DNA of 64,000 nucleotides from Escherichia phage vB_EcoP_PE006: the sequence record OQ938541.1; one strand, given 5' to 3'. The position numbers and the translations under genes are program-made. Positions 39,614 to 40,773 of this stretch are shown one piece after another (positions within the stretch are counted from its first letter, which is position 1; every line of letters starts with the position of its first letter). The notes beneath the pieces were generated by a model. The model worked only from the letters and a program-made list of their open reading frames with translations. It ran no database searches and had not been told where the DNA came from.

Positions 39614-40254
39614 GTAATCAATCCTTGAAACTCTTCTTTATCGAAGTGCTTCTCTACCACGTATTCATACAGATCTTTTAACTCTGCATAACGACGGTAG
39701 AAAGTTCCATGTGACATGCCAATAGTTTTCTGAATGTGGTCATGGGGGATACCCAAGAAGATCATTGAGAACATATTAGCTAACTTCTGAGTATCCATCG
39801 TATCACTTAAATCTTGGAAGAAGTAGAAGATACGAGACTCCATGAATGGGTCACCAACAGAGTCTTGCTTATCCATAGCAATCTCTAAAGGACTATCAAC
39901 CATATCAGGGGTACGGAACATATCAGCCTCTGGAATGGAGTAGATACGACGGTCCCCTACAGTCTGCCTATTTGAGCGTATAGACCAGATAATATTCTTG
40001 ACTCGATAGGTCATATGCTCTTGATCTTTCTCGTCCTCTAGGACTCTCTCATCCTGCTTAGCGAAGACAAATCTCCAAGCGTTCAAGAGCACTTCCTGTG
40101 CCACATCTTCTGCTTCATGGTAATCTCTGATATCGTACATGAAGAACTTGTGAACTACTTTCCAGTTCACTCTGTAAAACTCTTCATAGTTTGAGATGTA
40201 CTTAATAGGGATTCCATGAATGCGATATCTTGTAGGTGTTGTCTTCTTCGCCAT
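39610..40254 (-). CDS. sigma factor, ECF-like (putative phage-encoded RNAP specificity subunit)
   Basis: Region-2-like [12 protein letters not shown] and C-terminal region-4-like HTH ([30 protein letters not shown]). Confidence 0.55.
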
Positions 40255-40514
40255 TATTCTATTCCACGCTCTTTCAGAGCTTCTAACAATCCATTGTGAT
40301 TAGCAGCACATTCTGTGTACTGGTCCTGATACCACTCCAACGTAGTGGCTAGTGCTTTTCCTTGAGCACTCTCTAAAAGAGGTAGGTCAACCCTACATTC
40401 AGCTTTTAGGTTTGTTGGTAAGGGCATTGATTGCCTGCTGTTGTCGCTCGTTGAACAAGCTGATATACTCATCACTAGCGCAGACATTATAAAAAACTGG
40501 TTTAGTTTTCTCAT
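40254..40514 (-). CDS. lipoprotein, o-spanin-like (start at internal Met of track ORF 40254..40613)
   Basis: [20 protein letters not shown] has a signal peptide and lipobox Cys; small Pro-containing mature part; gene begins inside the upstream ORF in another frame. Confidence 0.4.
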
Positions 40515-40773
40515 AATGCATCTCTTTATAAATGGTTTCCGTGTTCTTCTTCCAGCTAGATAAACCGGTAAGAACTCTCTGGGCAACTTCATCAGCTGCC
40601 TTGCTTCTTTCAATCTCTAATTCTTGCTGGTGCTTCTCTTTGTCCAGATTACTACTGTCTGTTTGATATTCGTTAAACTTCATACCACCAAAGAATACAA
40701 GAGCTGAGAAAACGATAAACCCTAAGTTATCACTTAACGTGTTTTGCATGTTGTCTCCAACGAAAAAAGCCAC
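40399..40773 (-). CDS. type-II membrane protein, i-spanin-like
   Basis: N-terminal TM segment (LGFIVFSALVFFGG) followed by a charged helical domain; its 3' end overlaps the lipoprotein gene. Confidence 0.4.
   Translation of the reverse strand: MAFFVGDNMQNTLSDNLGFIVFSALVFFGGMKFNEYQTDSSNLDKEKHQQELEIERSKAADEVAQRVLTGLSSWKKNTETIYKEMHYEKTKPVFYNVCASDEYISLFNERQQQAINALTNKPKS

Follow-up and report, generated by a model that had tools for sequence, protein, structure and literature searches.

Two overlapping genes next to the sigma-factor gene of this phage, one for a small membrane protein and one for a lipoprotein, lie about 19 kb from the genes for its lysozyme and a possible holin. This raises the question whether the phage has dispersed its lysis functions over the genome, the overlapping pair being its spanin genes, or whether the pair has another role, such as superinfection exclusion. 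Both readings were put forward in the initial annotation of the 64,000-nucleotide stretch of DNA analyzed here (hereafter the window). The results described below indicate that the source phage is a Kuravirus and that the pair very probably constitutes its two-component spanin. The existence of a spanin pair at this locus is already known, and a dispersed lysis cassette is a reading that has already been published for phages of this kind.

The 2-kb stretch around the pair matched 97 phage records in a nucleotide search. All 97 are Escherichia/Shigella podophages of the phiEco32 group (Kuravirus and sister genera, Gordonclarkvirinae), and the best matches were phages 172-1 (97.9%) and NJ01 (97.8%). 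Judged from its sequence, the source phage is a Kuravirus, a phiEco32-like coliphage. Several of the matched records already name genes at this position 'Rz-like spanin', 'i-spanin' or 'o-spanin', and we use the latter two names here. All genes around the locus are on the minus strand. The two overlapping ORFs reported by the initial annotation for region 40254-40773 are both present, the limits of this region being those of the maximal ORFs. The pair had been placed between an ssb gene and the sigma-factor gene. The sigma-factor side of this assignment holds (phrog_1740, E=2e-45), whereas the name 'ssb' for the 248-aa neighbor (40807..41553) was unconfirmed by a PDB sequence search, by Pfam, by NCBIfam and by the annotation of 136 records. 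The stop codon of the o-spanin gene and the ATG of the sigma-factor gene have one base in common (TAATG). The coordinates of all features discussed are given in Table 1.

Table 1. Positions in the window of the spanin genes, of their signals and of the genes to which they are related in the text.
Feature	Position	Strand	Evidence
Sigma-factor gene (phiEco32 gp36 homologue)	39610..40254	-	phrog_1740 E=2e-45
o-spanin gene, 86-aa lipoprotein precursor	40254..40514	-	ORF, lipobox, phrog_2425, dN/dS
Lipobox I-S-A-C, o-spanin residues 17-20, Ser at +2	40455..40466	-	regex, hydropathy
Dual-coding overlap, 116 nt	40399..40514	-	ORF positions
i-spanin gene, 116 aa	40399..40749	-	ORF, translation, PHROG 1152, dN/dS
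i-spanin hydrophobic segment LGFIVFSALVFFGGMKF	40675..40725	-	KD17 maximum 1.9
GGAG ribosome-binding site of i-spanin	40755..40758	-	sequence; also annotated in Paul
Intrinsic terminator AGCCACC-UUCG-GGUGGCU + U6, between the 248-aa gene and the i-spanin ribosome-binding site	40762..40785	-	
TAATGTATA promoter motif, ~60 nt before the 248-aa gene	41613..41621	-	exact copy
Gene annotated as 'holin', 72 aa, with a single hydrophobic segment	21033..21251	+	phrog_11161 E=1e-49
GH24 endolysin, 163 aa	21281..21772	+	Pfam PF00959 (Phage_lysozyme) E=7.2e-32; phrog_7

The likely start of the i-spanin gene is the ATG at 40749, which has a GGAG sequence 5 nt upstream; the tables of a published spanin census give the same ribosome-binding site (PMC6139136). 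The GTG at 40773 was rejected as a start codon: it lies within the terminator hairpin and is without a ribosome-binding site. The encoded protein matched PHROG 1152, 'Rz-like spanin', over residues 3-116 (E=7.7e-37). Its identity to the i-spanins annotated in phages 172-1 and Paul is 96-98%, and that to the i-spanin of NJ01, which is listed in family JH2 of Kongari et al., is 95.7%. Hydropathy analysis showed a single hydrophobic stretch (about residues 9-25), the remainder of the protein being charged, and the Paul record cites a TMpred transmembrane domain at residues 8-23 for its i-spanin. The N-terminal tail preceding this stretch, MQNTLSDNLG, has a net negative charge and contains no Lys or Arg, so that the positive-inside rule does not predict an N-in topology; the same charge is flagged in the census table (PMC6139136). 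From the conserved cysteine, which is of the periplasmic type, and from the homologues we infer that the protein would nevertheless have a type II (N-in/C-out) topology. This cysteine, C90, is the only conserved one in the i-spanin and is invariant in seven distant homologues. An AlphaFold2 model, based on the single sequence and of low confidence (pLDDT 56.2), contained a membrane helix at residues 4-20 and helices at 34-76 and 86-111. The periplasmic domain is accordingly predicted to be mostly alpha-helical, with the reservation that the pLDDT of the model is only 56. According to the census tables, the NJ01 i-spanin is 63% helical, with a coiled coil spanning residues 24-51 (PMC6139136).

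The o-spanin gene begins at nucleotide 236 of the i-spanin gene, in the +1 frame, and extends 145 nt beyond its end, in agreement with the earlier proposal of a lipoprotein gene that starts inside the membrane-protein gene in another frame. The overlap encodes the last 38 codons of the i-spanin and, in the other frame, the signal peptide, the lipobox and the first mature residues of the o-spanin. A +1-frame overlap of either 116 or 131 nt was present in all 11 kuravirus-like loci measured. The likely start codon of the o-spanin gene is the ATG at 40514, with a weak ribosome-binding site, GAG, 7 nt ahead of it; a start at the TTG at 40613 was discarded, as this would bury the signal peptide. 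By regular expression and hydropathy the protein carries a textbook lipoprotein signal, consisting of the n-region MRK, a hydrophobic core and the lipobox ISA followed by C20, as expected if the second gene encodes a lipoprotein. The mature protein would have 67 residues, beginning with CSTSDN, and contains two cysteines (Cys41 and Cys69) in addition to Cys20, the predicted site of lipidation. In the Lol pathway, lipoproteins without Asp at position +2 are directed to the outer membrane; because residue +2 is Ser, the o-spanin is predicted to be sorted to the outer membrane. The protein is 98.8% identical to the o-spanin of Paul, for which a LipoP SpII score of 18.0 and a cleavage site at 19/20 are on record, and identity to the o-spanin of NJ01 (family NJ01 of Kongari et al.) is 96.5%.

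A six-frame lipobox scan of the 64 kb detected, besides the o-spanin ORF, two ORFs of 40-47 aa (at 15705 and 26437). These were rejected as lipoproteins, the mature part after the Cys being only 1-14 residues long, which leaves the o-spanin as the sole credible lipoprotein ORF of the window. Its best profile match was the unnamed phrog_2425 (E=3.3e-27), with a weak match to phrog_456, 'Rz-like spanin'. Searching a protein database with the o-spanin yielded only six clusters, and the alignment was therefore too shallow; four of the six clusters represent a mis-called form of 57 aa. An AlphaFold2 model based on seven sequences, again of low confidence (pLDDT 47.7), predicted helices only at residues 50-65 and 73-82. 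Neither the i-spanin nor the o-spanin matched Pfam lysis families, those of lambda Rz/Rz1 included, at E values up to 1, and NCBIfam gave no informative match for either protein.

The same overlap is interrupted in seven related phages by an HNH homing-endonuclease cassette of about 545 nt. The cassette occurs in two types, one in Bas86, Bas87, SU7 and PAS59, and a second one, 73% identical, in EK010, E20-1 and KM01; the source phage carries the uninterrupted spanin allele. On the left side of the cassette the last codons of the i-spanin gene are recoded, with many synonymous changes, and lead into a short tail that is new and ends in a stop codon, so that the i-spanin ORF remains complete in the cassette-bearing phages. 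The former o-spanin start stays within the i-spanin gene, but its reading frame now either meets a stop codon or no longer contains the lipobox. Homology restarts on the right side exactly at the lipobox codons GCT TGT. The new o-spanin signal peptides are MLTKKKQKSCLVILLASSLMA directly before the Cys, or (M)HIKKKLLSCTGILLAFSLSA directly before the Cys, the latter probably starting from a GTG; the new signal peptide is encoded by the other frame of the 3' end of the endonuclease gene and has its own Shine-Dalgarno sequence. In E20-1 the i-spanin is of the ECBP2 type and the o-spanin of the phiEco32 type, a combination to be expected if homing was accompanied by co-conversion. That both proteins have been kept through so disruptive an insertion argues that both are needed. 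Rfam gave nothing on the 64-kb window at the gathering threshold, and no match at E values up to 1, hence no recognizable group I intron, on five endonuclease-bearing loci. The annotation of the Bas86 i-spanin gene as 'joined' (intron-like) thus finds no support in such an intron, although splicing may still take place there.

Homologues of the two proteins outside the phiEco32 group link the pair to lysis. In tblastn searches of both proteins against 50,697 phage genomes, the i-spanin matched 437 records and the o-spanin 201, including unrelated phage groups at about 30-40% identity; a scan of IMG/VR gave only six loci. In Salmonella phage Sasha, a 9NA-like siphovirus, the gene order is holin, endolysin, membrane protein, i-spanin, o-spanin. 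In Proteus phage PM-CJR it is holin, hypothetical protein, peptidoglycan hydrolase, i-spanin and an unannotated overlapping lipoprotein ORF, and in the P2-like Yersinia phage vB_YenM_324 it is holin, endolysin, Rz-like spanin, O-spanin. The pair of Felixounavirus JN01 adjoins the genes for polynucleotide kinase and rIIB, apart from the lysis genes. The two genes overlap in all four of these phages. The linkage to holin and endolysin genes in three independent lineages provides strong evidence for a spanin function of the family. Alignment of seven distant pairs showed that residues G22, E80, N88, C90, N100, E101 and L110 are kept in the i-protein, and Cys20, Cys69, G52, N74 and L76 in the o-protein, with Cys41 kept in six of the seven. 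The conserved i-protein block NVC..D.Y..LFNE is encoded by the very stretch that also encodes the o-protein signal peptide.

In the window itself, a GH24 lysozyme gene and a holin-like gene were found about 19 kb from the pair (PF00959, E=7.2e-32, and phrog_11161, respectively), just as the initial annotation had it. Their counterparts in Paul are annotated as endolysin and holin. The next gene after the endolysin gene encodes a tail protein, and there is thus no spanin candidate beside the endolysin. In the Center for Phage Technology annotation of Paul, CDSs for an i-spanin and an o-spanin (CPT_Paul_036/035) occupy the homologous position, and the holin and endolysin genes lie within the virion module, about 19 kb from the spanin genes and on the other strand. 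The census of Kongari et al. (2018) lists NJ01, phiEco32, ECBP2 and KBNP1711 as two-component spanins of the 'ovl' type, with the kuravirus i-spanins in family JH2 together with those of Felix O1-type phages and the o-spanins in a separate family (PMC6139136). Its supplement gives the same sequences, the same ribosome-binding sites and an overlap of 115-116 nt, and counts a single periplasmic Cys for the i-spanin and two for the o-spanin, periplasmic cysteines, which would serve for intermolecular disulfides, being ubiquitous in two-component spanins; a curators' note assigns the holin to gene 26 and the spanins to genes 47-48 (PMC6139136). Kuravirus holin and endolysin genes have also been described as sitting among morphogenesis genes, and in the related Proteus phage Privateer the spanin genes are about 12 kb from the endolysin gene (PMC7881722). 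Together, the match to PHROG 1152, the homologues that follow holin and endolysin genes, the annotation of Paul and the published census bear out both the assignment of the two proteins as i-spanin and o-spanin and the view that the lysis cassette is dispersed.

As to expression, the intrinsic terminator ahead of the i-spanin gene is annotated at the equivalent place in the Paul record. The TAATGTATA sequence found upstream of the 248-aa gene is the motif reported in phiEco32 and SU10 for middle and late promoters that depend on gp36 (PMC4281155, PMC12276001); its count across the whole 64-kb window was not above chance. Its position and the literature make it the probable source of the spanin transcripts. 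The combination of this upstream motif, the terminator before the i-spanin gene and the TAATG junction with the sigma-factor gene suggests that the spanin genes are probably middle genes, which would be reached by terminator read-through from a gp36-type promoter. A sigma-70 promoter scan gave fewer matches than were obtained in shuffled sequences and was set aside, and the spanin products are absent from the SU10 proteome (34 proteins).

The alternatives to a spanin start with the lipoprotein frame itself, which might be a chance ORF, untranslated, within and after a real membrane-protein gene. The weakness of its ribosome-binding site would fit this idea, as would the fact that most database records omit the o-spanin or call only a 57-aa piece from an internal Met. 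We therefore calculated pooled Nei-Gojobori dN/dS values for the loci of ten uninterrupted relatives that align without gaps. The value was 0.11 for the i-spanin frame in the part that encodes only the i-spanin, and 0.10 for the o-spanin frame in the part that encodes only the o-spanin, against 0.8 to about 60 in the frames not proposed. Purifying selection acts on both frames. Nucleotide diversity in the overlap (0.071) was about half that in the flanks (0.133 and 0.179), as expected from dual coding. The dN/dS of 0.10 therefore shows that the lipoprotein frame is a real coding frame. An untranslated lipoprotein frame, named in the initial annotation as an outcome that would undo its reading, is contradicted by this value and also by the relatives, in which the lipoprotein signal has been re-created after the endonuclease insertion. 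In addition, the lipid Cys and the two further Cys are kept in homologues down to 23-36% identity. Taking these results together, we regard the chance that the frame is not translated as negligible.

If both proteins are made, they might still act before lysis and not as a spanin, the pair or the lipoprotein alone serving in superinfection exclusion or receptor masking. Phage lipoproteins that act in exclusion are exemplified by T5 Llp and by Cor, and small phage lipoproteins with such roles are thus known. The location of the pair in a middle-gene block, beside the gene for the sigma factor and 19 kb away from those for holin and endolysin, would be in line with an activity of this sort. PADLOC yielded 0 families, however, and no exclusion-type family was present among the PHROG matches, results that go against the exclusion role offered earlier as an alternative. 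Moreover, in three other phage groups the genes homologous to this pair close a holin-endolysin cassette. To be paired obligatorily with a putative type II membrane protein whose gene overlaps its own is the signature of a spanin lipoprotein, and the 64-kb window contains no other spanin candidate. Manual curation of the whole NJ01 and phiEco32 genomes likewise found no other spanin (PMC6139136). Distance from the other lysis genes is itself known for spanins, the spanin genes of T4 being unlinked from t and e (PMC6139136) and those of Felixounavirus JN01 being set apart as described above. An exclusion role in place of a spanin function is hence very improbable. A spanin that is functional in lysis and has a second role before it, for instance in envelope conditioning or in the exclusion of superinfecting phage, we consider unlikely as well. 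Its only support comes from the position of the genes in the middle block and from the single base that the o-spanin stop shares with the sigma-factor start: with the terminator ahead and the stop-to-start joining, synthesis of the proteins might begin long before lysis. Lambda Rz/Rz1 and T4 PseT.3/PseT.2 accumulate without harm before lysis. Since spanins do no damage as long as the wall is intact, early synthesis is unremarkable and needs no special explanation, and no positive evidence for a second role was obtained.

A two-component spanin at this locus, the explanation that we favor, could work as follows. The N-terminal helix of the 116-aa protein would hold it in the inner membrane, with a mostly helical domain extending into the periplasm, and the 86-aa precursor would be cut by signal peptidase II at Cys20, lipidated and, owing to the Ser at +2, sorted to the outer membrane. 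The periplasmic parts of the two proteins would then bind to each other and form a bridge spanning the periplasm. Such bridges would be kept inactive by the peptidoglycan mesh until the wall is destroyed by the GH24 endolysin, to which the holin gives access; the genes for these two proteins are 19 kb away. Once freed, the bridges would fuse or disrupt the outer membrane, by which lysis would be completed. We found no experiment on any Kuravirus spanin in the literature.

The value of these results lies mainly in correct annotation: in most kuravirus records the o-spanin is absent or cut to 57 aa, and the start codon given here allows it to be annotated correctly. The locus also adds a further case, with T4 and the Felix O1-type phages, of spanin genes apart from those for holin and endolysin. 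Furthermore, its endonuclease-bearing relatives provide a second natural case of a transition from overlapped to separated spanin genes in which neither protein was lost.

The HNH insertion is a new example of a known phenomenon. Kongari et al. (2018) compared T5 with Shivani and phiR201, where a GIY-YIG homing endonuclease gene lies between the spanin genes (PMC6139136). In that case as in the present one, an endonuclease gene separates the two genes, and the changes are confined to the very C-terminus of the i-spanin and to the signal sequence of the o-spanin. The two cases differ in the endonuclease, which is of the GIY-YIG type there and of the HNH type in the kuravirus relatives, and, unlike in T5/Shivani, the new o-spanin signal in the kuravirus relatives derives from the other frame of the endonuclease gene.

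The pair would belong to the same functional class as lambda Rz/Rz1, in which a type II protein of the inner membrane with a helical periplasmic domain is joined by a lipoprotein of the outer membrane whose gene is read in the +1 frame. The lambda Rz1 gene, however, lies wholly within Rz, and its product is a short, unstructured protein rich in proline, whereas the o-spanin gene studied here only overlaps its partner and encodes a 67-aa mature form with predicted C-terminal helices (low-confidence AlphaFold2 model), and no sequence relation to Rz/Rz1 is detectable by Pfam. T4 PseT.3/PseT.2 are similar in being unlinked from holin t and endolysin e, in their sizes (117 and 83 aa) and in the predicted C-terminal helix of the o-spanin (PMC6139136); they differ in that their genes are separated, and no similarity to them appeared among the PHROG matches. 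Closer are Sasha gp55/gp56 and the pairs of PM-CJR and vB_YenM_324, in which both proteins are homologous to those studied here (about 33-41% identity). These pairs share the overlapped +1 arrangement, the conserved Cys and the NVC..D.Y..LFNE motif, but they end a contiguous holin-endolysin-spanin cassette, whereas the present pair is 19 kb away from its partners and on the other strand. The closest systems are the spanins of NJ01, phiEco32, ECBP2, KBNP1711 and Paul, with proteins that are 96-98% identical and 116 and 86 aa long, an overlap of 115-116 nt, and the same lipobox position, ribosome-binding site, upstream terminator and distance from holin and endolysin. In Paul and phiEco32 a macro-domain (Appr-1-p) gene is located between the o-spanin and sigma-factor genes, which the source phage, 172-1 and NJ01 do without. 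Nothing substantive sets the present pair apart from the published kuravirus spanins.

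The spacing of transcription signals around the spanin pair suggests how the pair and the sigma-factor gene downstream of it are expressed (see table). A strong UUCG-loop terminator fills the gap after the gene of a 248-aa protein and thereby leaves no room for a promoter before the i-spanin RBS. Ahead of that neighboring gene stands a sequence that matches the gp36-type promoter motif exactly. Judged from this arrangement, expression of the spanin genes and of the sigma-factor gene would require read-through of the terminator. In the window, the stop codon of the o-spanin gene overlaps the start codon of the sigma-factor gene, and no macro-domain (Appr-1-p processing) gene separates the two genes here or in phages 172-1 and NJ01, whereas such a gene is present between them in Paul, phiEco32 and SU10. 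Since the sigma gene's own sigma-70 promoter was located upstream of the macro-domain gene in the SU10 paper, the promoter arrangement of the sigma gene may differ from that of SU10 in the window lineage.

Positions of features in the window and in spanin loci of related phages and a viral contig
Feature	Sequence	Position	Strand	Remark
Annotated "holin", 72 aa	window	21033-21251	+	label used across kuraviruses
o-spanin stop/sigma-factor start overlap, TAATG	window	40252-40256	-	
o-spanin	window	40254-40514	-	
Strong UUCG-loop terminator	window	40762-40785	-	directly between 248-aa gene and i-spanin RBS
248-aa protein	window	40807-41553	-	"ssb" of the initial annotation
Exact gp36-type promoter motif	window	41613-41621	-	upstream of 248-aa gene
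HNH cassette locus	L004 (Bas86)	1221-2258		
HNH cassette locus	L014 (SU7)	1492-2529		
HNH cassette locus	L005 (E20-1)	1188-2225		
HNH cassette locus	L016 (PAS59)			
HNH cassette locus	L017 (KM01)			
Divergent spanin pair	L012 (IMG/VR contig)	2477-2978		
Homologous spanin pair	L018 (Felixounavirus JN01)	2959-3469		

All 136 phage records that match carry the 248-aa protein as hypothetical, a sequence search gave no PDB match, and its weak NCBIfam match to a phage replication-initiation family falls below the cutoff. Its acidic C-terminal tail (YEDDNDSPF) recalls T7 gp2.5-type SSBs, which makes the label "ssb" plausible for this putative SSB. The sole hydrophobic segment of the annotated "holin" resembles a cleavable Sec signal peptide (MKMMK..., ...PVSA|VH); the 44 aa after it contain two Cys. 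The corresponding protein of a related phage was described in a 2026 paper as having a signal peptide only and no transmembrane domain (PMC13417854). The true holin of the kuravirus group may still have to be recognized. The o-spanin gene is mostly called as a 57-aa protein starting at an internal Met (MPLPTNL...; database proteins P0002-P0005) or is omitted. Homology searches with the full-length form return almost nothing, because the 5.8-billion-protein collection contains very few copies of it.

Seven kuravirus-like phages carry an HNH homing-endonuclease cassette within the spanin overlap; the window is without it. Two cassette types, 73% identical to each other, occur among the seven. 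The cassette supplies a recoded C-terminus of the i-spanin, and its 3' end, read in the other frame, gives the o-spanin a new lipoprotein signal peptide, so that the overlapped pair has become a separated one. Despite the joined, intron-like i-spanin CDS in the Bas86 record, no group I intron was detected with Rfam at five endonuclease-bearing loci. In E20-1, an ECBP2-type i-spanin (compared with locus L010; 74% identical to that of the window) lies upstream of the endonuclease gene and an o-spanin of the phiEco32/window type (96%) downstream, and KM01 has the same endonuclease type on a window-type backbone. This pattern suggests homing in which the downstream flank was co-converted. An endonuclease between spanin genes has a published precedent in T5/Shivani (PMC6139136), where the enzyme is of the GIY-YIG and not of the HNH type.

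More distant pairs were also found. That on an 87,959-base IMG/VR contig (i-spanin 47%, o-spanin 53% identical) keeps the +1 overlapped arrangement, with a 131-nt overlap, as well as the lipobox and all cysteines. In Felixounavirus JN01, the homologous pair adjoins a polynucleotide kinase gene and rIIB, as in Felix O1-type phages, a location that recalls phage T4, in which pseT.3 and pseT.2, the spanin genes, are neighbors of the polynucleotide kinase gene pseT.
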